From Candidatus Latescibacterota bacterium (GTDB lineage: Bacteria; Latescibacterota; UBA2968), in the NCBI GenBank assembly GCA_965204745.1, contig OZ242010.1, forward strand, positions 132,007 through 196,006: 64,000 nt of DNA. The letters are read 5' to 3'. Position 1 is the first letter of the stretch; each line of letters begins with the position of its first letter. Positions 10,662 to 54,630 of the stretch are shown here, one piece after another. The notes below the pieces were generated by a model that was not told the origin of the DNA, ran no database searches, and saw only the letters and a program-made list of their open reading frames with translations. The translations under genes and the position numbers were made by a program.

Positions 10662-10689
10662 CAAAATAACTGACGTTACGCAGTACGTC

Positions 10690-11092: not shown

Positions 11093-11096
11093 GCCT

Positions 11097-11589: not shown

Positions 11590-11593
11590 CGGA

Positions 11594-16890: not shown

Positions 16891-17001
16891 AATGCTTTCT
16901 CCTGTGTTGAGGTGGTGAACATCGAACAAACGCATAGCGGGTCGGTACTCGGGCGAGTACCGACCCGCTCTCATTGGGATTCCATACAGATCGGCTCTGG
17001 A

Positions 17002-19581: not shown

Positions 19582-19676
19582 GGGGTCAGTCCCCGCACCG
19601 TGCCTAAGCGAGACGTGAGATGAGATTTTAGCCACGAGCGGGGTACAACTGGCGATAACCCGTTCAAAAACGAGCA

Positions 19677-25374: not shown

Positions 25375-25439
25375 GTGAATCCTCCGAAATAAAATCATAC
25401 CCATTCGATTTCAAAGCGAAAAAAAATAAAGAATCACGC

Positions 25440-30553: not shown

Positions 30554-33500
30554 CTAGGGGGGTAGGTCCCAATTCCCTATCGCAGTTGTTTCGCCTGTCG
30601 AGCCATAGATGGCGGCGAAGATGCGGAAATCGTCATAGTCAATTTGCCCATCGCCATTGAGATCGTACAGGGCGTCATATCGCTTTTGACCGAGCCGCGA
30701 TTCGTACTTGACCACAAAGTTCGAGAAGTCGGCGAAATTCACAACCCCATCGCCATTGAAGTCGGGCGAGGGGAGTGAGACCTCGAGCGTGAAGGGCAGC
30801 GAGGCCGTATCGCCATCGGCTTCCAACGCGCTCAAGGTGTAGGTCGCCTGGGCCTTAGCCTCGGTCGGCAGACCGGAAAGGGTGCGCGTGGTCGGGTCAA
30901 ACGATAGGCCCTCTGGGAGGAATGGCAAGAGGATATAGACCAACATCCCATCGTCATTGCTCGCTTGCGGGAGCGTTAGGGACGCGATCTCCTGATTGAC
31001 GAGATAGCTCTGTGGATCGATAGTCGTATCGCCAAAGGTCGGCATCCAATTCTGGACTTCAAGGGTGAACAGGAGATGCACTTCATCGCCATTGCCGTCT
31101 GTTGCGGTCAGCGTGTAGGTCGTCTCGTCCATGGCCTTGATCGGTGTGCCAGACGCGATGCGCGTCTCGGCGTCAAAGGTCAAGCCCTCGGGCAGATCGG
31201 GGAGTAGCGCGTAGGTCAGCGGTTTATCGCCACCGGTTGCCGGCGGTAGGGTCAAGGGATCGATCTTTTGATATTGCACATAGCCCTGTGCGGCGACGGT
31301 CGTCTCGCCGAAGGTCGGTATCGGATCGGTCATTACAGAGAGGATGAACATCAAGGTCGCCTCGTCGCCATTTCTGTCTGTTGCGGTCAGCGTATAGGTC
31401 GTGTCGGCTATCGCCTCGAGCGGCGTGCCAGACAGCACCCGCGTCTTTTTATCGAAACTCAAGCCCTCGGGCAGATCCGGGGTCAGCGCGTAGGTCAGTG
31501 GTTTATCGCCACCGGTCGCTTGTGGGAGCGTCAGGGACTCGATCTCTTGCTTTCGCATATAGGCTTGGGCGGCCACACTCGCATCGCCAAAAGAGGGTAT
31601 CGGGTTCGCGATGACGGTGAGGAAGAAACTCAGGCCGGCCTCATCGCCATCTTCTTCTGTGGCGGTTAGGGTGTAGATCGCTTTTTTTATTGCCTTAAGT
31701 GGTGTGCCAGACACAGTGAGCGTCTCCGCGTCAAAGGTCAAGCCCTCGGGCAGATCCGGCAGGCTGTACGTTAATGTTCTCATCGTCTCATCGCCATATA
31801 GCACCGCGGCGGGCAGGGTCAGCGGTTTAATGGCCCTGTGTTGATAGTAGCTTTGCGGATCAACGGCATCGGTGAAGGTCAGTTCCGTATCCGGTTCTGG
31901 TTCTGGCTCGGGTTCTGGCTCTGGCTCGGGTTCTGGTTCTGGCTCGGGTTCTGGAGTAGCGGGCCTCTCGGGGGGATCGTCTTCCTCAATGGTTAGGGTC
32001 ACGGGAGACGCTAGCGACGCCAGATTGCCACCCGTCACCGTTGCAGACACGGTCACGCGCTTGTCAGGCTCATTGAACGAGTTGTCCACGGCTGTGATCG
32101 TCACGGTGCCCGTGCTCGTCGTTTGCCCCGCCGCGACGGTCAGCGTGGTCGTGGTCGATAGCGTGAAGTCATCCACAGACGATTCAGCCTCAGTTGAGAC
32201 AGTGATCGTCGTCGCTTCGGTTGCGGGCCGATCTAGCGTCGCCGTTACTGTCGAAACTCCGCCATTCTCCGTAATCGCCACCGGAGACAAAACCAACGTC
32301 ACCTGCGGCACGTCGTCATCGGTAATCGTCAGCGTCGCAGAAGTGACCGATCCCGCGCCCTGGCTGTTGGATGGCGTGCCCGTCACGGTTACCGTCTTGC
32401 TCCCCGAAGCGATATTGTTGTTCACTGTCGTGATCGTCACGATGCCCGTGCTCGTCGTTTGCCCGGCCGCGACGGTCAGCGTGGTCGCCGTGCTCAGAGT
32501 GTAGTCGGATGATGTAGGCACGGAAACCGCGATCGTCGTCGCCTCGCTCGACGGGTGAGACAGCGTCGCTGTCACTGTCGAAACCCCGCCGTTCTCCGAA
32601 ATCGACGCAGGCGACACAACCATCGTCACGGCCGGCGCAACATCGTCGTCCGTCAGCGTCAAAGAGCCCCCGGTCACACTGCCCGCGCCTTGGTCGTTGC
32701 GCGCCACACCGGTCACGACCACGTTGCGTGGAGGCGCGTCTCGGTTGTTGTCCACGGACGTGATGATCACCGTGTCCGCAGTGTTCGCAGTTTGCCCGGC
32801 CGCGATGGCAATCGTCGAATCCGTCGCCCCCACCGTGTAAGCACCAGGCACCGAGCGCACCGTGATCGTCGTGATCGCGCTCGACTTGTGAGACAGCGTC
32901 GCCGTGATCGTCGAGACCGCGCCGTTCTCTGAAATCGACGAAGGATCCGGCGTCAACATCACCGTCGGTGGATCGTCGTCATCTGTGATCGTCAGGGGCT
33001 CGGAAGACGATAGCGACGCCAGATTGCCAGCCGCCACCGTTGCAGACACGGTCACGCGCTTGTTCGGCGCATCGGTCGTATCGTTCACCGCCGTGATCGT
33101 CACGGTACCGGTGCTCGTCGTCACACTCGCCGCGATAGTCAGCGTGGTCGTGGCCGATAACGTGAAGTCACCCGCAACCGCAGGCGACACAGCCAGTGCT
33201 GAAACCGTGATCGTCGTCGCCGCGGTCGCAGTGCGATCCAGCGTCGCTGTGATCGTGGAAACCCCGCCATTCTCCGAAATCGACGACGGAGACAAAACCA
33301 ACATCACCTGCGCCACGTCGTCATCGGTAATCGTCAGCGTCGCAGGAGTGACCGACGACCCTACGCCCACGCTGTTGGATGGCGTGCCCGTCACGGTCAC
33401 CGTCTTGCTCCCCGAAGCGATATTGTTGTTCACCGTCGTGATCGTCACGGTGCCCGTGCTCGTCGTTTGCCCGGCCGAGACGGTCAGCGTGGTCGCCGTG

Positions 33501-36500
33501 CTCAATGTGTAGTCGGATGACGTAGGCACGGAAACCGTAATCGTCGTCGCCGCGCTCGATGGGCGATTCAGCGTCGCCGTCACAGTTGAAACCTCAATGT
33601 TCTCCGAAATTGACGACGGAGACACTGCCATCGTCACGTCCGGCGCGGCCTCATCCTCTGTGATCGTCAAAGTCGCGGCGGTCACATTGCCCGCGCCTTG
33701 GGCGTTGCCCGCCACACCGGACACGGTCACACGCTTGTCACGCGCATGGGTCGTGTTGTTCACGGCCGTGATCGTCACACTGCCCGTGCTCGTCGTCTCG
33801 CCCGCCGCGACGGTCAGCGTCTTCGTGGTCGATAGCGTGAAATCGCCCGCAACCGCAGGCGACACAGCCTCTGCTGATACCGTGATCGTCGTCGCCGCGC
33901 TTGACTTGTGAGACAGCGTCGCCGTGATCGTGGAAACGCCGCTCGCCTCTGAAATCGACGCGGGCGACAGCGATAGTGCCACCGTCGGCGCGGCATCATC
34001 GTCGGTGATCGTCAGGGTCACATCAGACGGGGCAGACGCCAGATTGCCAGCCGCCACCGTTGCAGACACGGTCACGCGCTTATTCGGCGCATCGGTCGTA
34101 TCGTTCACCGAGGTGATCGTCACGGTGCCCGTGCTCGTCGTCACACTCGCCGCGATAGTCAGCGTGGTCGTGGCCGATAGCGTGAAATCGCCCGCAACCG
34201 CAGGCGACACAGCCTCCGCTGAAACCGTGATCGTCGTCGCCGTGGTCGCGGGGCGATTTAGCGTCGCCGTTACGGTCGAAACCTTAGCATTTTCAGAAAT
34301 CGACGCAGGAGACAAAACCAACGTCACCTGTGCCACGTCGTCATCGGTAATCGTCAGCGTCGCATCCGTGACCGATCCCGTGCCCACGCTGTTGGATGGC
34401 GTGCCCGTCACGGTCACCATCCTGTCCCCCGAAGCGTTGTTGTTGTCCACCGTCGTGATGACCACCATGTCCGACGCGTTCGCCGTTTGCCCGGCCGCGA
34501 TGACAATCGTCGAATCCGTCGCCCCCACCGTGTAAGCACCAGGCACCGAGCGCACGGTGATCGTCGTCGCCGCGCTCGATGGGCGATTCAGCGTCGCCGT
34601 CACGGTTGAAACCTCGCCAGTCTCCGCAATCGACGTCGGGGACACTGCTATCGTCACGGCCGGCGCGGCCTCATCCTCTGTGATCGTCAACGCCGTGCCG
34701 GTCACACTACTGCCCACGCCTTGGTCATTACGTGGCACAACGGACACGGTCACACTGTTGTCCGGCGCATGGGTCGTGTTGTCCACTGCTGTGATGAGCA
34801 CCGTATCAGACGTGTTCGCCGTTTGCCCGGCCGCGATGACAATCGTCGAATCCGTAGCACCCACCGTGTAAGTACCAGGCACCGAGCGCACGGTGATCGT
34901 CGTCGCTTCGCTCGACTTGTGAGACAAGGTCGCCGTGATCGTGGAAACGCCGCTCGCCTCTGAAATTGACGCGGGCGATAGCGACAGGGCCACCGTCGGC
35001 GCGTCATCATCGTCGGTGATCGTCAGGGTCACGTCAGACGGGGCCGACGCCAGATTGCCAACCGCCACCGTTGCAGACACGGTTACGCGCTTGTTCGGCG
35101 CATCGGTCGTATCGTTCACCGAGGTGATCGTCACGGTACCGGTGCTCGTCGTCACACTCGCCGCGATAGTCAGCGTGGTCGTGGCCGATAGCGTGAAGTC
35201 ACCCGCAACCGCAGGCGATACAGCCTCCGCTGAAACCGTGATCGTCGTCGCATCGGTCGCGGGGCGATCCAGCGTCGCTGTGATCGTGGAAACCCCGCCA
35301 TTCTCCGAAATCGACGTCGGAGACAAAACCAACGTCACCTGCGCCACGTCGTCATCGGTAATCGTCAGCGTCGCATCCGTGACCGATCCCGTGCCCACGC
35401 TGTTGGATGGCGTGCCCGTCACGCTCACCATCCTGTCCCCCGAAGCGTTGTTGTTGTCCACCGTCGTGATGATCACCGTGTCCGATGTGTTCGCCGTTTG
35501 CCCGGCCGCGATGACAATCGTCGAATCCGTAGCCCCCACCGTGTAAGCACCAGGCACCGAGCGCACGGTGATCGTCGTCGCCGCGCTCGATGGGCGATTC
35601 AGCGTCGCCGTCACGGTTGAAACCGCGACGTTCTCCGAAATTGACGACGGTGACACCGCCATCGTCACGTCCGGCGGGGCCTCATCCTCTGTGATCGTCA
35701 AAGTCGCGTCGGGCACATTGCCCACGCCTTGGGCATTGCCCGCCACACCGGATACGGTCACGCGCTTGTTCGGCGCATGGGTCGTGTTGTTCACCGCCGT
35801 GATCGTCACACTGCCCGTGCTCGTCGTCTCGCCTGCCGCGAAGGTCAGTGTCTTCGTGGTCGATAGCGTGAAATCGCCCGCAACCGCAGGCGATACAGCC
35901 TCCGCTGATACCGTGATCGTCGTCGCCGCGCTCGATTCGTGAGACAAGGTCGCCGTGATCGTGGAAATGCCGCTCGCCTCTGAAATCGACGCGGGCGACA
36001 GCGACAGCGCCACCGTCGGCGCGGCATCATCGTCTGTGATCATCAGGGTCACATCAGACGGGGCCGACGCCATATTGCCACCCGCCGCCGTTCCGGACAC
36101 GGTTACGCGCTTGTCCGGCGCATCGGTCGTATCATTCACCGATGTGATCGTCACGGTACCCGTGCTCGCCGTCGCATTCGCCGCAATCGTCAGCGTGGTC
36201 GCGGCCGATAGCGTGAAGTCACCCGCAACCGCAGGCGATACAGCCTCCGCTGAAACCGTGATCGTCGTCGCCGTGGTCGCGGGGCGATTTAGCGTCGCCG
36301 TTACGGTCGAAACCTCGGCATTTTCAGAAATCGACGTCGGAGACAAAACCAACGTCGCCTGTGCCACGTCGTCATCGGTAATCGTCAGCGTCGCATCAGT
36401 GACCGACGACCCTACGCCCACGCTGTTAGTTGGCGTGCCCGTCACGGTTACCGTCTTGTCCCCCGAAGCGATGTTGTTGTTCACCGTCGTGATCGTCACG

Positions 36501-42500: not shown

Positions 42501-45500
42501 TCGGCTATCGTTAGCGTCGCAGCAGTGACCGATCCCGTGCCCACGCTGTTAGTTGGCGTGCCCGTCACGGTTACCGTCTTGTCCCCCGAAGCGACGCTGT
42601 TGTCCACCGTCGTGATTGTCACGGTGCCCGTGCTCGTCGTCTCGCCCGCCGCTATCGTCAGCGTCTTCGCCGTGCTCAGCGTGTAATCGCCTCCAACCGC
42701 AGGTGACACAGGCGTTACTGAAACCGTGATCGTCGTCGCCGCGCTCGATGGGCGAGACAGCGTCGCCGTCACGGTTGAAACCTCGCCAGTCTCCGCAATC
42801 GACGTCGGGGACACCGCTATCGTTACGGCCGACGCGGCCTCATCCTCTGTGATCGTCAACGCCGTGCCGGTCACACTACTGCCCACGCCTTGGTCGTTAC
42901 GTGGCACAACGGACACGGTCACACTGTTGTTAGGCGCATGAATCATGTTGTCCACTGCTGTGATGATCACTGTATCCGGCGCGTTCGCCGTTTGCCCGGC
43001 CGCGATGACAATCATCGAATCCGTCGCCCCCACCGTGTAAGCACCAGGCACCGAGCGCACGGTGATCGTCGTCGCTTCGCTCGACTTGTGAGATAGGGTC
43101 GCCGTGATCGTGGAAACGCCGCTCGCCTCTGAAATCGACGCGGGCGATAGCAACAGTGCCACCGTCGGCGCGGCCTCATCGTCGGTGATCGTCAGGGTCA
43201 CATCAGATGGGGCCGACGCCATATTGCCACCCGTCGCTGTTCCAGACACGGTCACTTCCTTGTCCGGTGCATCGGTCGTATCGTTCACCGAGGTGATCGT
43301 CACGGTACCCGTGCTCGTCGTCACACTTGCCGCGATAGTCAGCGTGGTCGTGGCCGATAGCGTGAAATCGCCCGCAACCGCAGGCGATACCGCCTCCGCT
43401 GATACCGTGATCGTCGTCGCCTCGGTCGCGGGGCGATTTAGTCTCGCCGTTACGGTCGAAACCTCGGCATTTTCAGAAATCGACGTCGGAGACAAAACCA
43501 ATGTCACCTGCGCCACGTCGTCATCGGCTATCGTTAGCGTAGCAGCCGTGACCGACGACCCTACGCCCACGCTGTTGGATGGCGTGCCCGTCACGGTTAC
43601 CGTCTTGTCCCCCGAAGCGACGCTGTTGTTCACTGTTGTGATCGTCACGGTGCCGGTGCTCGTCGTCTCGCCCGCCGCGACGGTCAGCGTCTTCGCCGTG
43701 CTCAGCGTGTAATCGCCTACAACCGCAGGTAATACAGGCGTTACTGAAACCGTGATCGTCGTCGCCGCGCTCGATGGGCGATTCAGCGTCGCCGTCACGG
43801 TTGAAACCGCGATGTTCTCCGAAATCGACGTAGGTGACACTGCTATCGTCACCTCCGGCGCGGCCTCATCCTCTGTGATCGTCAAAGTCGCGGCGGTCAC
43901 ACTGCCCACGCCTTGGGCGTTGCGTGGCACAACATTCACGGTCACATCGTTGTCCGGCGCATGGGTCGTGTTGTTCACCGCTGTGATGAGCACCGTATCA
44001 GACGTGTTCGCCGTTTGTCCGGCCGCGATGACAATCGTCGAATCTGTCCCCACCGTGTAAGCCCCGGCCACCGGGCGCACGGTGATCGTCGTCGCTTCGC
44101 TCGACTCGTGAGATAGGGTCGCCGTGATCGTGGAAACGCCGCTCGCCTCTGAAATCGACGCGGGCGATAGCGACAGTGCCACCGTCGGCGGATCGTCGTC
44201 GTCTGTAATCATCAGGGTCACGGCAGACGGGGCAGACGCCAGATTGCCAACCGCCACCGTTGCAGATACGGTCACGCGCTTGTCCGGCGCATCGGTCGTA
44301 TTGTTCACCGATGTGATCGTCACAAGACCCGTGCTCGCCGTCGCATTCGCCGCGACGGTCAGCGTCTTCGCGGTCGATAGCGTGAAATCGCCCGCAACCG
44401 CAGGTGATTCCGCCGTAGCTGAAACCGTGATCGTCGTCGCCTTGGTCGTGGGGCGATCCAGTGTCGCTGTGATCGTGGAAACCCCGCCATCCTCTGAAAT
44501 CGACGCAGGAGACAAAACCAACATCACCTGCGCCACATCGTCATCGGCTATCGTCAGCGTCGCAAGAGCGACCGTTCTCGTGCTCGCGCTGTTGTCCACC
44601 GCGCTGAACACGGTCACCCTCTTGTCCCCCGAAGCGGTGTTGTTGTCCACGGCCGTGATGACCACCGTGTCCGACGCGTTTGCCGTTTGCCCGGACGCGA
44701 TGATGATCGTCGAATCCATCCCCACCGTGTAAGCCTCGGCCACCGGGCGCACGGTGATCGTCGTCGTCGCGTCCAACGACTGTGTCAGCCTCGCCGTCAC
44801 GGTCGAAACGCCGCCGTTTTCCGAGATCGTCGAGGGCGTAAGTGTCAACATCACTATTTCTGGTTGCAGATCAAATTGCACAGTGGTGTCCATGCCGTCA
44901 TACTTCAAGACCGGATACTGATTCACCGTGCCAAAGTGCCACGGATCGTCGTCGCCGGGTTGTCCGTCGATGTCGATGTTCCAATTTTCGTAGATGCCGG
45001 TGTATCCTGTAACGGATACGAGTTCGGCGGTGGTCTTGCTGGTGACGCCGCTGGTGTCGGGGTCAGGGCTGTGGACGGCGCCGATGGCACGGCTCAGTCC
45101 GCTGGTTTCGGTGTCATAGTAGCTGTTGGATATGTCGTTGGTGTTTTGGTTTAAGCCTCCGATAAATCCGCCAGAGCCGTGCCATCGGCGCCAGTTACCG
45201 GCGCGGACGCGGTCAGTGGAGCTGACAGGGCCGATGGCGTAAGAGTTTATTATAACACTGTTAAAAATTCTGCCCACTAGACCGCCGACATACCTACTGC
45301 CGCTGACAGATGCCGTAGAGTAGCTCGTGGAGATCTTTCCGCGGATATCGGTCCGGCCTACTAATCCACCGATAGTGTAACCCCCACGGGGAGAGGGATC
45401 GGGCCACCGCCACTCAATGGGATTGAAACCGGCGACCCTGCCGGTGGTGTAGCAAGCGACAATGGTGCCGTGATTTTGTCCGGCCAGAATACCTACATGA

Positions 45501-48500
45501 GAAATTCCCGTGATATTGGCGTTGGTTATGCCCAGGGTTTCGACGCGGGAGAAGGCGCCAAGTTTGAAGAACAGGCCGAGGAAATTGGGGTTGGTGCCGC
45601 TACCGTAGATGGTGCGGTTGATGAACAGGTTGTTTATGGTGTGACCGTTGCCCTTGAAGTAGCCTGTGTAGCTGTTGCTGGTTCTGCAACAGGCGATGGG
45701 TAGCCAGCCGGAGCCGCCGTCCCAGTATTTGCCGCTGTGGTCGGTGGCATCTACATCGCCATCGCCATTGCTGTCGAAATCGAGGCTTGCGGTGAGTTCG
45801 TAGCCGACGCAGCGCCCGGACGGGCACCCCATGCGCTCCGCGGCAGCGGTGAAACGGTTGGGGAATGCAGCGTTGTAAGCGTTGTAGTTCATGGTATCAG
45901 CAGGGGCTACGAAACCATCGCCGTTGAGGTCATAGCGTATGGCGTTGAGTTGGTCGAGGTTGGCTACATCGATGTAACCGTCGTTATCCTCGTCGTAGTC
46001 GATCACATTCTCTGTGATCATCAGGGTCACGGTAGACCGGGCCACTGCTCCATTGCCACCCGCCACCGTTGCAGACACGGTCACGCGCTTGTCCGACGCC
46101 TGGATCATATTGTTCGCCGCTGTGATCGTCACAAGGCCCGTGCTCGTCGTCACACTCGCCGCGATAGTCAGCGTGGTCGCGGCCGATAGCGTGAAATCGC
46201 CCGAAACCGCAGGCGGTACCGCCGTAGCTGAAACCGTGATCGTCGTCGCCTCGGTCGCAGGGCGATCCAGCGTTGCCGTGATCGTGGAAACCCCGCCAGC
46301 CTCCGAAATCGACGACGGAGATAAAACCAACGTCGCATGCGGCCGGTCGTCATCGGTAATCGTCAGCGTCGCAGCCGTGACCGTTCCCGTGCCCGCGCTG
46401 TTGTCCACCGCGCTCAACACGGTCACCGTCTTGTCCCCCGCCGTTATGGCGTTGTCCACCGTCGTGATGACCACCGTGTCCGACGCGTTCGCCGTTTGCC
46501 CGGCCGCAATGATGATCGTCGAATCCATCCCCACCGCGTAAGCACCGGTCACGGGCCGCACGGTGATCGTCGTCACCGCGCTCGATGGGCGAGACAGGGT
46601 CGCCGTCACGGTCGAAACCTCGCCAGTCTCCGCAATCGACGTCGGGGACACCTCCATCGTCACGTCCGGCGGGTCCTCATCCTCTGTGAACGTCAACTCC
46701 GCGGTGACCACGTTTATGCCGTGCCAGTTAGTCACCTGAACCCACACGCCACGGCTGTTGTCCGGCGCATGAATCATGTTGTCCACTGCTGTGATGATCA
46801 CTGTATCCGTGGTCGCCGTTTGCCCGGCCGCGATGGTAATCGTCGAATTCGTCGCCCCAACCGTGTACACGCCAGGCACCGGGCGCACTGTGATCGACGT
46901 CGGCGCAACCGAACTACCCGATAGCGTCGCCGTGACCGTGGCAACACCGCCGTTCTCCGAAATCGACGACGGGTTCACCGCCATCGTCACTGTCGGCGTG
47001 GACTCATCGTCGGCAATCGTCAGGATCGCGTGCGACGTCGTTATATCGTTTGCCCCTGAAACCGTTGCCGCCACGGTCACGCGCTTCCACGGCGCATCGA
47101 TGGCGTTGTCCACCGCTGTGATCGTCACGGTGCCCGTGCTCGTCGTCGCATTTGCCGCTATCGTTAGCGTCTTCGCGGTCGAGAGCGTAAAATCGCCCGC
47201 AACCGCAGGTGCCACCGCTGTCGCCGAGACCGTGACCACCACTGCGGATGTCAGTGGTTTCGTCAATGCTGCCGTCACAGTCGTCTGATTGGCTGTACCA
47301 CTCTCGTCGATCTGTCGTGGCGTAAGTATCAATGTCACGAGTCGTGGTTGCAGATTAAATTGCAAGTCGGTGTCCATGTCGGCATACTTCAAGACCGGAT
47401 ACTGACTCGCCGTGCCAAAGTGCCACGGATCGTCGTTGCCCCCTTGCCCGTCGATGTCGATGTTCCAGTTTGAGTAGATGCCGGTGTAGCCGGTAATGGA
47501 TCGGAGTTCGTGGGTGGTCTTGCCGACGCCGAGCGCGCTGGTGCCTTTCCCACTGCTGTGCATGTCCCAATAGCTGAAGTTTGCGATGTTCGTAGTCGCT
47601 CGTACCCCGCCGCAGGCGAACGTTGCACCACTGTAAGTATAACAGGTGCTTTCGTCATTCGCATTCCCTACTAACCCGCCGGCCCAGCTGGCTTCGACGC
47701 TGGGGTACTCCTCTGCACCACCGACGCCGACGCCGACGGCGGGGAGGACCGCGCCCTGATCACGCTCACTTCTTATTATCCTGCCGAAAGCGTTGCCTCC
47801 GGTGACTATGCCGTTGGCGTAAGAGCTTGATATATGGGTGTTCTGCCACGCAGTGCCTACCAGACCACCGACGTCTCTGACTTCGCTGACATTTGCCATG
47901 GAGTAGCTCGCGTGGATAGTTCCCTGGAAGGAAAAACCGACTAATCCACCGATACTGTGGCTGTTGACCCCCCACGGGGTGAAGTGCGGGGTTGGGGTGC
48001 CTACTGGAGCGAAATCTTGGCCAGAGACCGTGCCGTGTGTGTAGCAGGCGACAATGGTACCTTTGAAAAGTATTCCGGCCAGAATACCTAGGTAAGAACC
48101 TCCTGTGACATTGGCGTTGATTATGCCCAGGGATTCGACGCGGGAGCCGATTCCAAGGCTATAGAACAACCCGAGTTTAGAGACAGAAAAGCCAACAGTG
48201 CTGGTTCTCTTTATGAACAGGTTTTTTATGGTGTGGCCGTTGCCCTTGAAGTAGCCTAAGTAGCCCGATTGGTGCCCTTGGTCCCCCCCGGGCACCCAGT
48301 AGCGGTAGTCGTACCTGTCTCCATAGAAGGCCCCAGAGGTTCCGGCGATTGGTCTCCAGCCGCGGCCGTTGTCCCAGTATTTGCCTCCGTGGTCGTCGGC
48401 ATCTACATCGCTATCGCCATCGCTGTCGAAGTTGAGGTCGTTCAGCAGTTCGTAGCCGACGCATCCAGAAGTGGGGCAGCCCATGGGTCCAACAGAAGAG

Positions 48501-51370
48501 GTGGGAGTGACGATGCGGTCGGGGAATGCGGCGTTGTAGGGCCGGGTGTAGGTCAGGGTATCGACAGTGGGCCATATCCCTGGAGTGGGAAATATCTCTG
48601 GCCTCGGGAGGTCCACGACGCCATCGGCGTTTATGTCACTGCGAATGGCAGAGAGCTGATCGAGGTTGGTTATATCGATGTAACCGTCGTTATCCAGGTC
48701 GTAGTCAACAAAGCCGTCGTTGTCTATAATCGTCAAAGAGCCGGTCACGTTGCCCACGCCTTGGTCGTTGCTCACCCCAACAACCACGGACACTACGATA
48801 TCCGCGGTATTGACTGCGTTGTCCACGGCCGTGAGGATCACCGTGTCCGACGCGTTCGTCGTGTCCCCGGCCGCGATGGTGATCGTCGAATCCGCCCCCA
48901 CCGTGTAAGTATCCGCCACCGGGCGCACGGTGATCGTCGTGATCGCGCTCGATAGATGCGACAGGGTCGCCGTGACCGTGGAAACGCCGAGCGCCTCCGA
49001 AATCGTCGAGGGCGACATCGACAAGGTTATGTCCGGCGCGGCCTCATCGTCGGTGATCGTCAGCATCAGGGTAGCCGGGATCGTCGCCCCATTGTCGCTC
49101 TGCACAATTGTGGGCACGGTCACTCTGTTGTCCGGCGCATCGGTTATATTGTCCACGGCCGTGAGGATCACCGTGTCCGACGCGTTCGCGGTTTGTCCTG
49201 CCGCGATGGTGATCGTCGAATCCGTCCCCACGGTATAAGCCCCCGCCACCGGGCGCACCGTGATCGTCGTCGCCAGGGTCGATGCGCGAGACAGGGCCGC
49301 CGTGATCGTGGCAACACCGCCGTTCTCCGAAATCGTTGACGGGTTCGCCGCCAGCGTCACTGTCGGCGCGGCCTCATCGTCGGTGATCGTCAATGTCGCG
49401 TTCAATACCGACAATGTGTCGCTCGAAGCTGACCCCGAGACGGTCACGCGCCTGTGCCGCGCATCGGCGGTCGCGTTGTTCACCGCTGTGATCGTCACAA
49501 GTCCCGTGCTCGTCGTCGCATTCGCCGCGACAGTCAGCGTCTTCGCGGCCGATAGCGTGAAATCGCCCGCAACCGTAGGCGATACCCCTGTCGCAGCCAC
49601 CGTGATCGTCACTGCGTTGTTCACCGCTCTCGGCAATGTTGCCGTTACAGTCGTCCGATTGGTCGCACCGCTCTCGTCGATCGTCGAAGGCGCGAGTGTC
49701 AACCTCGCCACCGCAATCTGGGCGGCAAATTGCGCGGTGGTGTCCATGCCTGCATACTTCAAGACCGGATACTGATACGCCGTGCCAAAGGTCCACGGAT
49801 CATCGTCGCCGAGTTGCCCGTCGATGTCGATGTTCCAGTTTTCGTAGATGCCGGTGTATGTCGTAACGGATACGAGATCGCTGGTGATATAGCCGGTGCC
49901 GACAGCACTGGTGTCTTGTCCACTGGTCAAAGTGTCCCAATAATTGTCGCGTGTGCTGGTGTTTCTCTTCAGCCCTACTAACCCGCCGACGCGGGAGGTT
50001 CCGGTGACCCGGCCGGTGGCGTAAGAGTTTATTACCCTACCTGGAGGATACCCTGTGGATGGCGAGTAAACAGCTCCGCCCAGCAAACCGCCGACACCGA
50101 TGTGACCGCTGACAGATGCAGTGGAGTAGCTCGTAGAGATAATTCCTAAGGATTCGCCGACTAATCCACCTGCATAATGTGAGTAGCGAGAATTTAAGGC
50201 CCTGACCGTGCCTGTGGTGTAGCAGGCGACAATTTCGCCAGCAGTGTAAGCGGCCAGAATGCCTGCACCACCTAAGGTTGTGATATTGGCGTTGGTTATG
50301 CCCAGGGTTTCGACGCGGGATCCGGGGCCAAGCTGGTAAAACAGACCTGCATACGCGCTGCCATCCCGATAGAGACGGAGGTCGCTGAATAGGTTGTTTA
50401 TGGTGTGACTGTTGCCCTTGAAGTTGCCTGTGAGGCTGTAGGGTAGCCAGCCAGCGCCGTTGTTCCAGTATTTGCCGCTGTGGTCGTTGGCATCTACATC
50501 GCCATCGCCGTCGCTGTCGAAGTCGAGGCTTGCGGTGAGTTCGTAGCCGACGCATCCGGAAGTGGGGCAGCCCATGAGTCCAACGGAAGCGTTAGCAGTG
50601 GCGATGCGGTTGGGGAATGCGGCGTTGTAGGCGGCACCCTCCCGCAGATTTGTCGCGACGGAGATGGAATCGAGCCATCCCTGAGTAAAAGGGCGACTTC
50701 CCGCAGCGCGCCATGCCGCGATGCTGACCGCTAAGGCAAGGGAATCGGCGACCGAATGGGCTCTATCCCGGGCGCCATCGGTGTCCATGTCATAGCGAAT
50801 GGCATTGAGCTGATCGAGGTTGGCTACATCGATGTAACCGTCGTTATCGAAGTCGTAGTCAACCTCATCGTCGGTGATCGTCAGGGTCACGGCAGACGGG
50901 GCCAATGCCCCATTGCCACCCGCCGCCGTTGCAGACACGGTCACGCGCTTGCTCGGCACCTGGGTCCTATCGTCCACCGCCGTGATCGTCACGATCCCCG
51001 TGCTCGTCGTCGCATTCGCCGCTATCGTCAGCGTGGTCGCGGCCGATAGCGTGAAATCGCCCGCAACCGCAGGCGATACAGCCGTAGCTGAAACCGTGAT
51101 CGTCGTCGCCTCGGTCGCAGTGCGATCCAGCGTTGCCGTGATCGTGGAAACCCCGCCGTTCTCCGAAATCGACGACGGAGACAAAACCAACGTCACCTGG
51201 GCGTTTTGGGCAAAAGCCGACCCCGATGCCATCAGCAAAACCAGCACGATATAGAACCACACCCCAAGAAGGGGATGGCCGCCATGAACCCCGGTTTTCG
51301 CGGGAGGACAAGCGGTGGGAACCGAGGGCCTAAATGGGTTCAAACAGCGTCTGAAAATTTCGGCAATCAT
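30554..51370 (-). CDS. Giant secreted multi-domain protein (6,938 aa). N-terminal: 3 GLUG-motif modules interleaved with Calx-beta. Middle: ~45 Calx-beta-like domains in ABC triplet super-repeats. C-terminal: (PE)13 linker, 4 He_PIG/cadherin-like domains, and a type-I dockerin.
   Basis: Single uninterrupted ORF. The hydrophobic leader is WFYIVLVLLMASGSAFAQ. Calx-beta consensus: ISENGGVSTITATL...TITVSA.AVSPAVAGDFTLS...TLTIAA..TTSTG.VTITAVDN. GLUG: GGLVGE/GGLLGG. C-terminal DFNGDGVVNFADFSNFVVKY...YDLNGDGQIDYDDFRIFAAIYG. The exact start codon is uncertain because there is no SD at 51370. Confidence 0.85.
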   Translation of the reverse strand: MIAEIFRRCLNPFRPSVPTACPPAKTGVHGGHPLLGVWFYIVLVLLMASGSAFAQNAQVTLVLSPSSISENGGVSTITATLDRTATEATTITVSATAVSPAVAGDFTLSAATTLTIAANATTSTGIVTITAVDDRTQVPSKRVTVSATAAGGNGALAPSAVTLTITDDEVDYDFDNDGYIDVANLDQLNAIRYDMDTDGARDRAHSVADSLALAVSIAAWRAAGSRPFTQGWLDSISVATNLREGAAYNAAFPNRIATANASVGLMGCPTSGCVGYELTASLDFDSDGDGDVDANDHSGKYWNNGAGWLPYSLTGNFKGNSHTINNLFSDLRLYRDGSAYAGLFYQLGPGSRVETLGITNANITTLGGAGILAAYTAGEIVACYTTGTVRALNSRYSHYAGGLVGESLGIISTSYSTASVSGHIGVGGLLGGAVYSPSTGYPPGRVINSYATGRVTGTSRVGGLVGLKRNTSTRDNYWDTLTSGQDTSAVGTGYITSDLVSVTTYTGIYENWNIDIDGQLGDDDPWTFGTAYQYPVLKYAGMDTTAQFAAQIAVARLTLAPSTIDESGATNRTTVTATLPRAVNNAVTITVAATGVSPTVAGDFTLSAAKTLTVAANATTSTGLVTITAVNNATADARHRRVTVSGSASSDTLSVLNATLTITDDEAAPTVTLAANPSTISENGGVATITAALSRASTLATTITVRPVAGAYTVGTDSTITIAAGQTANASDTVILTAVDNITDAPDNRVTVPTIVQSDNGATIPATLMLTITDDEAAPDITLSMSPSTISEALGVSTVTATLSHLSSAITTITVRPVADTYTVGADSTITIAAGDTTNASDTVILTAVDNAVNTADIVVSVVVGVSNDQGVGNVTGSLTIIDNDGFVDYDLDNDGYIDITNLDQLSAIRSDINADGVVDLPRPEIFPTPGIWPTVDTLTYTRPYNAAFPDRIVTPTSSVGPMGCPTSGCVGYELLNDLNFDSDGDSDVDADDHGGKYWDNGRGWRPIAGTSGAFYGDRYDYRYWVPGGDQGHQSGYLGYFKGNGHTIKNLFIKRTSTVGFSVSKLGLFYSLGIGSRVESLGIINANVTGGSYLGILAGILFKGTIVACYTHGTVSGQDFAPVGTPTPHFTPWGVNSHSIGGLVGFSFQGTIHASYSMANVSEVRDVGGLVGTAWQNTHISSSYANGIVTGGNAFGRIIRSERDQGAVLPAVGVGVGGAEEYPSVEASWAGGLVGNANDESTCYTYSGATFACGGVRATTNIANFSYWDMHSSGKGTSALGVGKTTHELRSITGYTGIYSNWNIDIDGQGGNDDPWHFGTASQYPVLKYADMDTDLQFNLQPRLVTLILTPRQIDESGTANQTTVTAALTKPLTSAVVVTVSATAVAPAVAGDFTLSTAKTLTIAANATTSTGTVTITAVDNAIDAPWKRVTVAATVSGANDITTSHAILTIADDESTPTVTMAVNPSSISENGGVATVTATLSGSSVAPTSITVRPVPGVYTVGATNSTITIAAGQTATTDTVIITAVDNMIHAPDNSRGVWVQVTNWHGINVVTAELTFTEDEDPPDVTMEVSPTSIAETGEVSTVTATLSRPSSAVTTITVRPVTGAYAVGMDSTIIIAAGQTANASDTVVITTVDNAITAGDKTVTVLSAVDNSAGTGTVTAATLTITDDDRPHATLVLSPSSISEAGGVSTITATLDRPATEATTITVSATAVPPAVSGDFTLSAATTLTIAASVTTSTGLVTITAANNMIQASDKRVTVSATVAGGNGAVARSTVTLMITENVIDYDEDNDGYIDVANLDQLNAIRYDLNGDGFVAPADTMNYNAYNAAFPNRFTAAAERMGCPSGRCVGYELTASLDFDSNGDGDVDATDHSGKYWDGGSGWLPIACCRTSNSYTGYFKGNGHTINNLFINRTIYGSGTNPNFLGLFFKLGAFSRVETLGITNANITGISHVGILAGQNHGTIVACYTTGRVAGFNPIEWRWPDPSPRGGYTIGGLVGRTDIRGKISTSYSTASVSGSRYVGGLVGRIFNSVIINSYAIGPVSSTDRVRAGNWRRWHGSGGFIGGLNQNTNDISNSYYDTETSGLSRAIGAVHSPDPDTSGVTSKTTAELVSVTGYTGIYENWNIDIDGQPGDDDPWHFGTVNQYPVLKYDGMDTTVQFDLQPEIVMLTLTPSTISENGGVSTVTARLTQSLDATTTITVRPVAEAYTVGMDSTIIIASGQTANASDTVVITAVDNNTASGDKRVTVFSAVDNSASTRTVALATLTIADDDVAQVMLVLSPASISEDGGVSTITATLDRPTTKATTITVSATAESPAVAGDFTLSTAKTLTVAANATASTGLVTITSVNNTTDAPDKRVTVSATVAVGNLASAPSAVTLMITDDDDPPTVALSLSPASISEASGVSTITATLSHESSEATTITVRPVAGAYTVGTDSTIVIAAGQTANTSDTVLITAVNNTTHAPDNDVTVNVVPRNAQGVGSVTAATLTITEDEAAPEVTIAVSPTSISENIAVSTVTATLNRPSSAATTITVSVTPVLPAVVGDYTLSTAKTLTVAAGETTSTGTVTITTVNNSVASGDKTVTVTGTPSNSVGVGSSVTAATLTIADDDVAQVTLVLSPTSISENAEVSTVTARLNRPATEATTITVSAEAVSPAVAGDFTLSATTTLTIAASVTTSTGTVTITSVNDTTDAPDKEVTVSGTATGGNMASAPSDVTLTITDDEAAPTVALLLSPASISEASGVSTITATLSHKSSEATTITVRSVPGAYTVGATDSMIVIAAGQTANAPDTVIITAVDNMIHAPNNSVTVSVVPRNDQGVGSSVTGTALTITEDEAASAVTIAVSPTSIAETGEVSTVTATLSRPSSAATTITVSVTPVSPAVGGDYTLSTAKTLTIAAGETTSTGTVTITTVDNSVASGDKTVTVTGTPTNSVGTGSVTAATLTIADDDVAQVTLILSPTSISENAKVSTVTATLNRPATTATTITVSAEAVSPAVAGDFTLSATTTLTIAASVTTSTGTVTITSVNDTTDAPDKRVTVSGTVAAGNLASAPDDVTLTITDDDAAPTVALTLSPASISEASGVSTITATLSHKSSEATTITVRSVPGAYTVGATDSTIVIAAGQTANATDTVIITAVDNTTHAPNNSVTVPVVPHNDQGVGSIVTGTALTITEDEAAPDVTIAVEPTSIAETGAVSTVTATLSRPSSAATTITVSVTPVLPAVVGDYTLSTDKTLTVAAGETTSTGSVTITTVNNNIASGDKTVTVTGTPTNSVGVGSSVTPATLTIADDDVAQVMLILSPASISENAEVSTVTATLDRPATEATTITVSAEAVSPAVAGNFTLSTATTLTIAASVTTSTGTVTITSVNDTTDAPDKRVTVSGTATGGNMASAPSAVTLTITDDEAAPTVALSLSPASISEASGVSTITATLSHESSAATTITVRSVPGAYTVGATDSTIVIAAGQTANATDTVLITAVDNMIHAPNNSVTVPVEVSNDQGVGSSVTGTALTITEDEDPPDVTMAVSPTSIAETGAVSTVTATLNRPSSAATTITVRSVPGAYTVGATDSTIVIAAEQTANTSDMVVITTVDNNIASGARMVTVTGTPSNSVGTGSVTAATLTITDDDMAQVTLVLSPTSISENAKVSTITATLNRPATTATTITVSAEAVSPAVAGDFTLSAATTLTIAANATASTGSVTITSVNDTTDAPDKRVTVSATVAAGNLASAPSDVTLTITDDEAAPTVALSLSPASISEASGVSTITATLSHKSSEATTITVSAEAVSPAVAGDFTLSTMKTLTFAAGETTSTGSVTITAVNNTTHAPNKRVTVSGAAGNAQGVGNVPDATLTITEDEAAPEVTMAVAPTSISENVAVSTVTATLNRPSSAATTITVSVTPVLPAVVGDYTLSTAKTLTIAAGETTSTGTVTITTVNNNIASGDKTVTVTGTPANSVGVGSSVTAATLTITDDDVAQVTLVLSPTSISENAKVSTVTATLNRPATEATTITVSAEAVSPAVAGDFTLSAAKTLTIAASETTSTGIVTITSVNNTTDAPDKRVTVSGTATGGNMASAPSDVTLTITDDDAAPTVALSLSPASISEASGISTITATLSHESSEATTITVRPVAGAYTVGATDSTIVIAAGQTANATDTVLITAVDNMIHAPNNSVTVSVVPRNDQGVGSSVTGTALTITEDEDPPDVTIAVSPTSISETVAVSTVTATLSRPSSAATTITVRSVPGAYTVGATDSTIVIAAGQTANATDTVLITTVDNAIASGARMVTVTGTPSNSVGTGSVTAATLTITDDDMAQVTLVLSPASISENAKVSTVTATLNRPATDATTITVSAEAVSPAVAGDFMLSTTKTLTIAANATASTGTVTITSVNDTTDAPNKRVTVSGTVAAGNLASAPSDVTLTITDDEAAPTVALTLSPASISEASGVSTITATLSHKSSEITTITVRSVPGAYTVGATDSTIVIAAGQTANATDTVLITAVDNTTHAPNNSVTVPVEVSNDQGVGSSVTGTALTITEDEDPPDVTMAVVPTSISENGAVSTVTATLNRPSSAATTITVRPVTGAYTVGMDSTIVIAAGQTANTSDTVVITTADNNIASGDRMATVTGTPSNSVGTGSVTAATLTITDDDVAKVTLVLSPASISENAKVSTVTATLNRPATTATTITVSAEAVSPAVAGDFTLSATTTLTIAASVTTSTGSVTITSVNDTTDAPNKRVTVSGTVAAGNLASAPSDVTLTITDDEAAPTVALSLSPASISEASGISTITATLSHKSSEATTITVSAEAVSPAVAGDFTLSNTKTLTFAAGETTSTGSVTITAVNNTTHAPNKRVTVSGAAGNAQGVGNVPDATLTISEDEAAPDVTMAVAPTSISENVAVSTVTATLNRPSSAATTITVSVTPVSPAVVGDYMLSTAKTLTVAAGQTTSTGSVTITTVNNNIASGDKTVTVTGTPTNSVGVGSSVTDATLTITDDDVAQATLVLSPTSISENAEVSTVTATLNRPATTATTITVSAEAVSPAVAGDFTLSAATTLTIAANATASTGTVTITSVNDTTDAPDKRVTVSGTAAGGNMASAPSDVTLMITDDDAAPTVALSLSPASISEASGISTITATLSHESSAATTITVSAEAVSPAVAGDFTLSTTKTLTFAAGETTSTGSVTITAVNNTTHAPNKRVTVSGVAGNAQGVGNVPDATLTITEDEAPPDVTMAVSPSSISENVAVSTVTATLNRPSSAATTITVRSVPGAYTVGATDSTIVIAAGQTANTSDTVIITTVDNNNASGDRMVSVTGTPSNSVGTGSVTDATLTITDDDVAQVTLVLSPTSISENGGVSTITATLDRPATDATTITVSAEAVSPAVAGDFTLSATTTLTIAASVTTSTGTVTITSVNDTTDAPNKRVTVSATVAVGNLASAPSDVTLTITDDDDAPTVALSLSPASISEASGVSTITATLSHKSSEATTITVRSVPGTYTVGATDSTIVIAAGQTANTSDTVLITAVDNTTHAPDNSVTVSVVPRNDQGVGSSVTGTALTITEDEAAPAVTIAVSPTSIAETGEVSTVTATLNRPSSAATTITVRSVPGAYTVGATDSTIVIAAGQTANASDMVVITTVDNNNASGDRMVTVTGTPSNSVGTGSVTDATLTITDDDVAQVTLVLSPASISENAKVSTVTATLNRPATTATTITVSAEAVSPAVAGDFTLSATTTLTIAASVTTSTGTVTITSVNDTTDAPNKRVTVSATVAAGNLASAPSDVTLTITDDDAAPTVALSLSPASISEASGVSTITATLSHKSSAATTITVSAEAVSPAVAGDFTLSTTKTLTVAAGETTSTGSVTITAVNNTTHARDKRVTVSGVAGNAQGAGNVTAATLTITEDEAAPDVTMAVSPSSISENIEVSTVTATLNRPSSAATTITVSVPTSSDYTLSTATTLTVSAGQTTSTGTVTITTVNNNIASGSKTVTVTGTPSNSVGVGSSVTPATLTITDDDVAQVMLVLSPSSISENGGVSTITATLDRTATAATTITVSALAVSPAVAGDFTLSATTTLTIAASVTTSTGTVTITAVNDTTDAPNKRVTVSATVAAGNLASLSSSEPLTITDDDDPPTVMLTPDPSSISENGAVSTITATLSHKSSAITTITVRSVPGAYTVGATDSTIAIAAGQTANTADTVIITSVDNNRDAPPRNVVVTGVARNDQGAGSVTGGSLTLTDDDVAPAVTMVVSPASISENGGVSTVTATLSHPSSEATTIAVSVPTSSDYTLSTATTLTVAAGQTTSTGIVTITTVNNNIASGSKTVTVTGTPSNSQGAGSVTSATLTITDDDVPQVTLVLSPVAITENGGVSTVTATLDRPATEATTITVSTEAESSVDDFTLSTTTTLTVAAGQTTSTGTVTITAVDNSFNEPDKRVTVSATVTGGNLASLASPVTLTIEEDDPPERPATPEPEPEPEPEPEPEPEPEPEPDTELTFTDAVDPQSYYQHRAIKPLTLPAAVLYGDETMRTLTYSLPDLPEGLTFDAETLTVSGTPLKAIKKAIYTLTATEEDGDEAGLSFFLTVIANPIPSFGDASVAAQAYMRKQEIESLTLPQATGGDKPLTYALTPDLPEGLSFDKKTRVLSGTPLEAIADTTYTLTATDRNGDEATLMFILSVMTDPIPTFGETTVAAQGYVQYQKIDPLTLPPATGGDKPLTYALLPDLPEGLTFDAETRIASGTPIKAMDETTYTLTATDGNGDEVHLLFTLEVQNWMPTFGDTTIDPQSYLVNQEIASLTLPQASNDDGMLVYILLPFLPEGLSFDPTTRTLSGLPTEAKAQATYTLSALEADGDTASLPFTLEVSLPSPDFNGDGVVNFADFSNFVVKYESRLGQKRYDALYDLNGDGQIDYDDFRIFAAIYGSTGETTAIGNWDLPP
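31888..31953. repeat. 6-bp tandem repeat (ggttct/ggctcg) encoding the (PE)13 linker
   Basis: Read directly. The + strand reading gives the GSGS... ORF 31872-32504. Confidence 0.8.
32900..44700. repeat. About 11.5 near-identical (~93-97%) tandem super-repeats of ~1,026 bp (three Calx-beta domains each) inside the giant gene
   Basis: The + strand antisense ORFs recur with a 1,011-1,035 bp period (33924, 34935, 35955, 36990, 37998, 39009, 40044, 41055, 42081, 43104, 44124). Their products are >90% identical. Confidence 0.85.
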
Positions 51371-53697: not shown

Positions 53698-54630
53698 TCA
53701 CGCCTCCGCGTCCAATTCGCGCTGAAATTCACCCAGATCCGAGACTTGCACTGCCGAGCGATGCAACTGCTTGAGGCGTTGCAAATCTTCGATAGCTCGA
53801 ATGCAACCTGCGACCTGATCGGCCCCGGCAGGATCAAAGCGAATCTCCAGCACGTCGAGAATCGCGTCCATGGTATGTTCCCTACCCCCTCGCTCAATGC
53901 CCTGCTCAATGCCCTGCTCAATGCCCTGCTCAATAAACTGTTCCTTGAAGTGTTCCTTGAGGTATTGGGCAAACGATGATTCACGCATAATCGCGTCCAT
54001 AAAACCCTCCTGAGAAATGATACGCTTGATGGTGTTCGACTCATAAGCCAAGCCACTCATGACCGCCAAGCCACCCAAAAAGTTGATCTTGCTTGAATGA
54101 TCCAAGGGCATCGCATCGGTCTTGCGGATACACTGACGCAACCATGCCTCTGAATCCACCCCCACAGGAGGTTTCATCAACGGCGCGAAAGGAAGCAAGC
54201 CCGCCTGACCCCCTTCAAGAATGCTTTGCCCATCCACCTCACTCAGCCGAATCACCTTGTATTCCACAAAGATGAAATGGCCGGGAAGTTCTTGCGTGTA
54301 GCATCCTGGATCGTGCCGCCCGGCATTGCGCCGCAAGTAGATCACACAGGAATAGACCGGCAGGCCATACTGCGCGATAATGTAACCCATGTAATTGATC
54401 ATGCGGCGATTCATCGGGGTGCCCGTGCTGTCGGTGGTTTGAAATTCCGTGTGAACCAAGGCCTCCTGACCGTCAAGGCGCACGCGAATCAGATTATCGC
54501 TTCGACGCAGGTGGGTTGTTCGGTTTCGAGCAGACCGTCAACTTCCACATCAACTCGTCCGAGGATGAATTGGACGAGGTCGGCTGGATAGTTTTGAATC
54601 AGGTTTGGAAATTGTATCGTACTCGGCCAT
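53698..54630 (-). pseudogene. Rpn/YhgA-like PD-(D/E)XK gene, copy 2, disrupted by at least two frameshifting deletions near the 5' end
   Basis: ~90% nt identity to 24397-25374. A ~7-nt deletion at ~54505 and a 2-nt deletion at ~54606 relative to copy 1 split the N-terminus (MAEYDTISK) into ORF 54550-54756, out of frame with the body ORF 53698-54483. Confidence 0.65.

Follow-up and report, generated by a model that had tools for sequence, protein, structure and literature searches.

Fibrillar adhesins are defined by the combination of an adhesive domain, a tandem stalk and a means of surface attachment; dockerins are not listed among the anchors catalogued for them, and nearly half of the fibrillar adhesin-like proteins were detected without a recognised anchor (PMC8286594). 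The sponge Aggregation Factor (AF), which is Ca2+-dependent, contains arrays of 2–15 Calx-beta domains (PMC5400394), and Calx-beta, leucine-rich repeat (LRR), fn3 and cadherin domains are eukaryote-like classes that are enriched in sponge symbionts (PMC9531527, PMC11706023). Here, we analysed a stretch of 64,000 nucleotides from a Candidatus Latescibacterota bacterium (assembly GCA_965204745.1, contig OZ242010.1, positions 132,007 to 196,006; hereafter the window), which encodes on its minus strand a single protein of 6,938 amino acids (aa), hereafter the giant protein, built of three GLUG modules, 46 Calx-beta-like repeats, a Pro/Glu-rich linker, four He_PIG domains and a dockerin-like module (Table 1). 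We consider it probable that this protein is a fibrillar adhesin of a sponge symbiont, anchored by its C-terminus and carrying GLUG heads on a Ca2+-stiffened shaft. Measured against the definition above, a tandem stalk is provided by the 46 repeats and the four He_PIG domains, and the GLUG beta-helices would be the adhesive domains; we infer the anchoring, the ligands and the Ca2+ binding of the protein, as set out below.

The frame comprises 6,938 codons and contains its terminal stop only, which bears out the uninterrupted 20.8-kb open reading frame (ORF) that had been claimed in a sequence-only reading of this DNA. The same reading had described a hydrophobic leader, and we found a hydrophobic core at aa 34–50 and, between aa 54 and 55, the cleavage site AFA|Q; stand-alone homologues of the GLUG modules share an '...ASGQAFAQ' leader, and the true start codon of the giant protein may lie further downstream than annotated. 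The protein consists of 18% Thr and is strongly acidic (D+E = 644 vs K+R = 255). Because the ORF is intact, the leader carries the AFA|Q site, the Cys pairs of the GLUG modules are invariant and the acidity is strong, the giant protein is predicted to be a Sec-exported extracellular protein. A motif scan of the whole protein found no GG.G.D nonapeptide of the repeats-in-toxin (RTX) type, no HExxH and no LPXTG, and neither a C-terminal transmembrane segment nor a retention module of RTX proteins secreted by a type I secretion system (T1SS) was present. There was no Pfam match to the anchor domains SLH, LysM, Por_Secre_Tail or CHU_C in the pieces scanned and none to HemolysinCabind in the giant protein, no T1SS genes were found among its neighbours in the window, and no carbohydrate-active enzyme (CAZyme) or lyase family was matched in Pfam or NCBIfam, the NCBIfam scan of four pieces having returned spurious or low-complexity matches only.

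Pfam matches were judged by gathering scores (27 bits for Calx-beta PF03160, 22.9 for Dockerin_1 PF00404, 20.5 for Glug PF07581 and 24 for He_PIG PF05345). Glug was matched in the N-terminal pieces of the giant protein at 29.7 and 22.7 bits, and each GLUG module contained three GGLVG-type motifs, a D-rich 'DYDxDNDGYID...LNAIR' segment and one Cys pair (C268/C273, C965/C970 and C1849/C1854 in modules 1, 2 and 3, respectively), so that the three modules proposed earlier, with their GGLVG repeats, D-rich segments and Cys pairs, could all be located. Module 1 is made up of an EF-hand/dockerin-like D-rich segment, the Cys pair, a right-handed beta-helix and a C-terminal 'NWNIDIDG..DDPW.FG..QYPVLKY' cap. 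By fold, the GLUG modules are right-handed beta-helices resembling 3n6z, and their closest structures are the non-catalytic beta-helices of IgA1 proteases. More than 750 homologues of the modules were found, mostly stand-alone secreted proteins of 480–660 aa that share the leader, the 'DYDxDNDGYID...LNAIR' segment, the invariant Cys pair and a Trp-rich cap, and one 3.18-Mb Dehalococcoidia genome held ~9 loci of this family.

At the starts of the three modules (aa 170–200, 888–918 and 1790–1820), the D-rich segment reads 'DYDxDNDGYIDVxNLDQLNAIRxDxxxDG', a loop-helix-loop that resembles the F-hand of dockerins and EF-hands. It was modelled with a predicted local distance difference test score (pLDDT) of 89–95 and is kept across an 80-sequence family alignment, and its Pfam EF-hand matches were marginal (E = 0.05–0.3). 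ORFs with many GLUG modules, of up to >6,999 aa, also occur in other metagenome-assembled genomes (MAGs). At four loci (L019, positions 2..20998, with 48 GGLVG motifs; L043; L054; L026) in MAGs of Dehalococcoidia, Ca. Versatilivorator, Aldehydirespiratoraceae and Ca. Poriferisocius, we observed open frames of 4,500 to >6,999 aa in which such motifs are densely crowded, and these giants are, as judged by their motifs, made mainly of GLUG modules.

The remainder of the N-terminal third and the long array that follows it consist of Calx-beta-like repeats of 109–116 aa, which number 46 and not the ~60 estimated previously. From aa 2279 (window 44536), the array is arranged as 12 A-B-C triplets and a last A, B and C each occurring in two variants, as the proposal of ABC triplets had anticipated, and LTITDDD or LTITEDE closes almost every repeat from 9 to 46. 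Long pieces of the giant protein gave no match to Calx-beta PF03160 at E ≤ 0.1, and the best single repeat (aa 3753–3867) reached 21.6 bits (E = 2.3e-4, model positions 6–118/119). Several repeats matched LapA PF20579 at 17–30 bits (up to 29.9), with the last repeat above the cutoff of that family, and several scored higher on it than on Calx-beta. When the Protein Data Bank (PDB) was searched by sequence, a profile of the 46 repeats retrieved no Calx-beta structure, its only match being to a C-terminal domain in a protein-asparaginase (9xg1, E = 0.002); with a single repeat as query, nothing was retrieved at E ≤ 10. It was fold comparison, in which the repeats pass as Calx-beta beta-sandwiches, that settled the question, since the sequence searches of the PDB did not reach it. 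Homology could also be followed through intermediates: ~40 of the best 120 homologues of an A-B-C triplet carry a precomputed PF03160 annotation, PF20579 is likewise among the annotations of these homologues, and two proteins with the same C-terminal tag as the giant protein, P0398 and P0393, scored 175.8 and 49.9 bits on Calx-beta, respectively. The relatives of the repeats are bacterial. Overall, the repeats are diverged Calx-beta-fold domains at the border between Calx-beta and LapA repeats; the earlier assignment to Calx-beta thus held for fold and for homology through intermediates but not at the PF03160 threshold (21.6 vs 27 bits), and of the two assignments put to profile models, Calx-beta failed and the dockerin passed.

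To locate possible Ca2+ ligands, the repeats were aligned to the Ca2+-binding domain CBD1 of the Na+/Ca2+ exchanger NCX1, using a CBD1 sequence the numbering of which reproduces the published ligand numbers (E385, D421, D446/447, E451, E454 and D498–500). The equivalent of E385 was kept in 46/46 repeats, and the equivalents of D498–D500 were D or E in 46/46, 44/46 and 45/46 repeats; that of D421 was confined to the repeat types having a GDF/GDY motif. Automatic alignments of the repeats to CBD1 were stable solely at both ends. Binding of Ca2+ at the junctions between domains is therefore best described as plausible on the strength of these residues.

Between the shaft and the C-terminal domains lies a linker that contains (PE)10P at aa 6473–6493 (window 31892–31954), shorter than the (PE)13 first reported; it resembles the Pro-rich spacer of TonB, to the Pro-rich region of which it gave weak matches. 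The four He_PIG domains noted in the sequence-only reading were recovered by Pfam across four stretches (E = 5.6e-30, 104.1 bits), and the region also matched the cadherin-like (CDHL) modules of Staphylococcus aureus SraP (4m03, E = 2e-11). The last 78 aa, scanned alone, scored 28.5 bits on Dockerin_1 (22.4 bits when embedded in a 939-aa piece) and 34.7 bits on EF-hand_1. Two Ca-loop segments, DFNGDGVVNFAD from aa 6870 and DLNGDGQIDYDD from aa 6903, start 33 residues apart, and over both of them the region aligned to the Cel48 dockerin of B. cellulosolvens (2y3n_B, E = 6.9e-6), in agreement with the duplicated-loop type I dockerin that had been proposed. Anchoring of the giant protein at the surface through this module, and the cohesin partner that the sequence-only reading took a dockerin to imply, are putative.

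An exhaustive phmmer search with the 78-residue C-terminal tag returned 2,943 relatives at E ≤ 1e-3, the closest of which (55–74% identity) lay at the extreme C-terminus of proteins of 800–1,900 aa and of one 6,265-aa protein, P0455. The latter has Calx-beta-like repeats 57–65% identical to those of the giant protein, a Pro-rich linker, He_PIG units and a Dockerin_1 match of 31.2 bits; at the positions of the GLUG modules it carries five LRR modules, and it has no GLUG motif anywhere. Because GLUG is swapped for LRR in this protein, these positions would be those of ligand-binding modules, which is the strongest argument for the GLUG modules as heads. Seven further tag-bearing proteins were scanned with Pfam. 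He_PIG units directly preceded the tag in all seven, and Dockerin_1 was above threshold in five (P0374, P0389, P0390, P0398 and P0406), the tags of P0393 and P0427 having been recognised by the phmmer match alone. Their N-terminal cargo was GLUG with fn3, fn3 alone, cadherin-like domains with fn3, GLUG with fn3 and Calx-beta, four Calx-beta domains, or LRR. On these domain orders, the He_PIG and dockerin tail is a common cassette borne by differing stalks (fn3, Calx-beta) and heads (GLUG, LRR, cadherin-like), and the giant protein is seen as a member of a recurrent, apparently undescribed modular family in which a constant base is combined with exchanged stalks and heads. The combination had been called not a described family, and we found no publication describing it, but it is not unique, as it recurs in P0455 and in proteins of 1,000–1,900 aa that join the He_PIG-dockerin tail to GLUG, Calx-beta, fn3 or LRR cargo; our literature search returned nothing relevant on dockerins in sponges or Poribacteria, nor on GLUG in sponges.

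One of these relatives, P0398 (locus L089, ERZ23495625 scaffold_1432), is a protein of 1,880 aa with four Calx-beta domains, four He_PIG domains and a dockerin. Its gene adjoins those of a TonB-dependent receptor and a heparinase II/III and hence belongs to a diderm, so that the He_PIG-dockerin cassette appears not to be confined to one type of envelope or one phylum. On another contig, tandem tag-bearing genes adjoin an S8 peptidase, and in giant proteins from Acidobacteriota MAGs, Glug occurs together with Calx-beta (above threshold), Cadherin, SWM_repeat and fn3. In ~1.6 Mb of loci from other MAGs, C-terminal Ca-loop tags were found only in a near-identical copy of the giant protein (L080), in L037, where there is a single loop, and in L059, where the tag is likely a chance match inside a GLUG module (n = 3 in the window). 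Because it is so rare in these loci, the Ca-loop tag is not universal among carriers of the GLUG family.

The closest GLUG modules (43–47% identity) are encoded in complete Dehalococcoidia MAG chromosomes, and further relatives in Ca. Versatilivoraceae and Terriglobia (Acidobacteriota), Ca. Poriferisocius and Aldehydirespiratoraceae (Acidimicrobiia), Caldilineaceae and others; among the relatives of the He_PIG region are proteins that annotations assign to Ca. Poribacteria and Ca. Tectomicrobia. These lineages are typical sponge symbionts, and by the company its modules keep, the host of the giant protein is probably a marine-sponge-associated bacterium; on these relatives alone, it would be taken for a symbiont of Chloroflexota/Dehalococcoidia type. 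The organism is a recurrent one, since a MoxR protein identical to that of the window was found in at least six other metagenome assemblies.

Taken together, these features suggest how the giant protein could work. After cleavage of the signal peptide behind AFA54, the four He_PIG domains and the Ca-dependent dockerin would hold the protein at the cell surface via a cohesin-like or other partner, and (PE)10 would form a rigid rod that separates this base from the shaft. The 46 Calx-beta-fold domains would make up an elongated shaft, the junctions of which may be stiffened by Ca2+, plentiful in seawater, through the invariant 'ISEN' Glu and the terminal DDD/EDE of the repeats. From known domain sizes we estimate a total length of ~0.2 µm, and the three GLUG beta-helices, with Calx-beta spacers between them in the N-terminal third, would be displayed about that far from the cell as distal ligand-binding heads. 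Probable targets are molecules of the extracellular matrix or cell surface of the host, or other cells of the sponge mesohyl.

Several observations weigh against this model. Every repeat of the giant protein that was scanned fell short of the PF03160 threshold, and the central Ca2+ ligands D446/D447, E451 and E454 are only partly kept when compared by eye, in a region where the automatic alignments disagree. Neither a PF00963 cohesin nor another candidate receptor was found among the ~29 window ORFs scanned, and cohesin was likewise absent from the neighbourhoods of three related tag-bearing genes (L088, L087 and L089). Dockerin-like modules are said, by Peer et al. in 2009, to be widespread in organisms without known cohesins. 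In addition, the habitat and the type of organism are deduced from how related MAGs are named and not from anything in the window.

It is hardly credible that the 20.8-kb frame arose by mis-joining or collapse of a repeat array, or that it is a decaying pseudogene without expression. Such an origin might be suspected in a gene this repetitive (Tandem Repeats Finder reported a 345-bp period across 33045–43891, and three repeats make up a super-period of ~1,020 bp), all the more as the searched protein collection held no full-length protein and its best match to a GLUG module was only ~50% identical. However, we estimate the chance of a stop-free run of ~6,900 codons at ~e^-240, the longest exact DNA repeat within the ORF is 133 bp, and the repeats differ by 4–18% in nucleotides; among the A-type repeats (n = 12), nucleotide identity was 82–96%, with mean nonsynonymous (dN) and synonymous (dS) divergences of 0.078 and 0.203 (dN/dS ~0.39). 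Because of this 133-bp maximum, the divergence of the repeats and their dN/dS, the array is not an assembly artefact: by these measures it has diverged under purifying selection and is not a collapsed or duplicated product of assembly. An independent contig (ENA ERZ25068400 ctg17731) reproduced the C-terminus at 99% identity, adjoining the same neighbours (NFACT, MoxR and an LDL-receptor-repeat protein), and the 6,265-aa sister P0455 shows that a protein of the same plan exists elsewhere. An assembly artefact was rejected on repeat divergence, dN/dS and the independent contig. On the plus strand, antisense to the array, ORFs of ~200 aa with GTG starts are spaced ~1,020 bp apart (window 31872..49775); these are not genes but reflect the triplet super-period of GC-rich DNA.

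The giant protein might also be a released matrix scaffold, that is, a fibre secreted free that cross-links proteins with dockerins or cohesins, or polymers bridged by Ca2+, into a matrix surrounding the symbiont or lying in the host mesohyl. The lack of LPXTG, of a C-terminal transmembrane segment and of an RTX/T1SS retention module would fit this, as would the lack of a cohesin among the window ORFs scanned, a strongly acidic and Thr/Ser-rich composition suited to a Ca-bridged matrix, and the occurrence of the same tag on several different secreted proteins, as in components that assemble together. We consider a scaffold unlikely, because a constant base with a variable stalk and head matches surface-display adhesins, and a PE spacer beside the base would most simply span a wall. 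Very improbable is a cellulosome-like glycan degrader, with the GLUG beta-helices serving as lyases or hydrolases on sulfated host glycans and displayed by a dockerin-cohesin assembly: no CAZyme or lyase family of Pfam or NCBIfam and no HExxH motif was found, the sister P0455 has LRR, a pure binding module, instead of GLUG, and the best structural neighbours of the GLUG modules are non-catalytic, although dockerins are a hallmark of cellulosomal enzymes, a sulfatase is encoded in the window and sulfatase/heparinase genes lie beside related tag-bearing genes. A cellulosomal enzyme was rejected on its missing defining features. We also rejected an RTX/T1SS adhesin (no GG.G.D, no HemolysinCabind, no neighbouring T1SS genes, and an N-terminal Sec leader present) and an M26 IgA1 metalloprotease (no HExxH in the whole protein and no Peptidase_M26 Pfam match).

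A more far-reaching idea, which we think improbable, is that the shaft is a bacterial counterpart of the sponge AF that might intercalate with, or bind to, the AF or its receptors. Membership of the AF itself was rejected, as there was no VWA/VWD Pfam match and both the gene context and the relatives are bacterial. If the shaft did act in this way, the cell would be held in place in the mesohyl and labelled as 'self', which would help it to escape phagocytosis; exchangeable GLUG/LRR heads would tune the specificity for host or partner, and the He_PIG-dockerin cassette would be a new, non-cellulosomal means of surface display, horizontally shared among sponge symbionts of several phyla.

The window encodes three tagged secreted proteins within 64 kb, namely the giant protein, a secreted S8 subtilase and a 404-aa protein with a hydrophobic N-terminal segment and no Pfam family. 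A fourth gene of interest, also syntenic in the contig with the near-identical copy of the giant protein (L080), encodes a 988-aa protein in which ten LDL-receptor class B (YWTD) repeats (E = 9e-104), forming a propeller of animal type, are followed by two or three copies of the B-type Calx-beta-like repeat of the giant protein. The gene neighbourhood is otherwise one of housekeeping functions (NFACT/RqcH, MoxR, a Clp/HslU-like ATPase, a MurQ-like SIS protein, UPF0182, UvrB and a fused UDP-sugar epimerase/GalT), and no secretion-system genes were found among the neighbours scanned. A sulfatase and a DDE transposase are also encoded in the window (Table 1), and sulfatase and heparinase genes adjoin related tag-bearing genes at two other loci (L087 and L089), which is consistent with a lifestyle using sulfated glycans. 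Two paralogues at 24397..25404 and 53698..54483, both on the minus strand, are ~93% identical in protein sequence and have in common a conserved C-terminus and, in their interior, an (EQGI)n repeat, with no Pfam family at E ≤ 0.001. In the same orientation they flank a segment of ~29 kb that contains MoxR, NFACT, the giant protein and the Clp-like ATPase. Possibly they are elements akin to transposases or nucleases, or they delimit a segment that is mobile or recombines.

Table 1. Positions of the parts of the giant protein and of selected neighbouring genes in the window.
Feature	Protein position (aa)	Window position	Strand	Basis or remark
Whole giant ORF	6,938 aa + stop	30554..51370	minus	Single unbroken frame
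N-terminal leader with predicted Sec-type signal peptide	1–54	51209..51370	minus	Sequence; like leaders of homologues
Calx-beta-like repeat 1	56–169	50864..51205	minus	Repeat analysis; LapA PF20579 19.9 bits
GLUG module 1	170–552	49715..50863	minus	D-rich segment, Cys pair, beta-helix, cap
Calx-beta-like repeats 2–4	553–885	48716..49714	minus	Repeat analysis
GLUG module 2	886–1342	47345..48715	minus	Pfam, alignment; 58% identical to module 1
Calx-beta-like repeats 5–8	1343–1789	46004..47344	minus	Repeat analysis
GLUG module 3	1790–2164	44879..46003	minus	Pfam Glug 22.7 bits; 63% identical to module 1
Calx-beta-like repeats 9–46	2165–6465	31976..44878	minus	Repeat analysis, fold, Pfam
Pro/Glu-rich linker	6466–6496	31883..31975	minus	Holds (PE)10P; weak TonB Pro-rich-region matches
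Four He_PIG (cadherin-like/Ig-like) domains	6497–6866	30773..31882	minus	Pfam He_PIG, SraP match
Type I dockerin-like module	6867–6925	30596..30772	minus	Dockerin_1, EF-hand_1, 2y3n_B
13-residue tail	6926–6938	30557–30595	minus	
Sulfatase PF00884		7699..9288	plus	E = 4e-38
S8 subtilase, secreted, HYDIN/ASH-type Ig domains		12865..15759	minus	Ends in the two-loop dockerin-like tag of the giant protein
404-aa protein		15760..16974	minus	Ends in single-loop half-dockerin tag GDLDDDGDVDGDDFLIFSENFG
DDE transposase		20082..20975	plus	
988-aa secreted LDL-receptor class B (YWTD) protein		20955..23921	minus	Pfam; repeat comparison

How sponges tell the bacteria that densely populate them from those they feed on is an open question, and work on eukaryote-like domains, the main genomic correlate of residency in sponges, has mostly consisted in counting them. 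Counts that use Pfam thresholds overlook the Calx-beta domains of proteins such as the one described here. The locus instead offers a concrete full-length architecture together with a family rule, by which a He_PIG-dockerin base is joined to a Calx-beta/fn3 shaft and a swappable GLUG/LRR head. Its parts are testable: a candidate anchoring system, for which a receptor would be required, a putatively Ca-dependent shaft of the same domain type as a host adhesion factor, and a large, paralogue-rich family of GLUG beta-helix heads, the ligands of which can be screened. The use of dockerins would be extended beyond the display of enzymes.

Among known systems, the giant protein can be likened to fibrillar adhesins with Ca-stiffened repeat extenders (LapA, MpIBP, SiiE and Bap-type), which are likewise secreted, of giant size and provided with a stalk of tens of beta-sandwich repeats of ~100 aa in tandem. 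With them it further shares binding modules at one end and acidic junctions between domains, and its repeats give sub-threshold to threshold matches to the LapA repeat family PF20579; it differs in having an N-terminal Sec leader, whereas theirs is C-terminal RTX/T1SS secretion, and in a stalk of Calx-beta fold where theirs is made of BIg domains. It is further set apart by its proposed anchor, a C-terminal dockerin, and by heads that are N-terminal. In SraP (serine-rich adhesin for platelets), the CDHL modules act as a rigid stalk, and the four C-terminal units match both He_PIG and the tandem of these modules; here, in contrast, the units lie between a PE linker and a dockerin as part of a conserved base cassette, with no adjacent L-lectin head and no LPXTG.

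The dockerin itself has, like cellulosomal type I dockerins (PF00404, 2y3n_B), a duplicated Ca-binding loop-helix (F-hand) at the extreme C-terminus. Unlike them, its cargo is an adhesin-like fibre and not a carbohydrate-active enzyme, behind its loops it shows a 'DF..F...YG' pattern particular to its clade, its host lineage is not a cellulolytic Firmicute, and no cohesin was found in the window. Other Calx-beta systems, namely CBD1/CBD2 of NCX, integrin beta4 and the sponge AF (MAFp4 and AqAFs; PMC5400394), differ from the giant protein in that its repeats are below the PF03160 threshold, keep the central Ca ligands only partly and occur in 46 copies; in addition, the giant protein is a bacterial gene product with bacterial relatives and had no match to VWA or VWD. 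Finally, GLUG domains are known from BACOVA_03286 (3n6z) and from the M26 IgA1 proteases of streptococci and Gemella (7jgj, 7uvk). The giant protein lacks the M26 domain and HExxH of those proteases, and to the shared beta-helix its modules add an N-terminal D-rich, EF-hand-like segment, a conserved Cys pair and a Trp-rich cap, three features that, as judged from the alignments, define a large secreted family in related MAGs.

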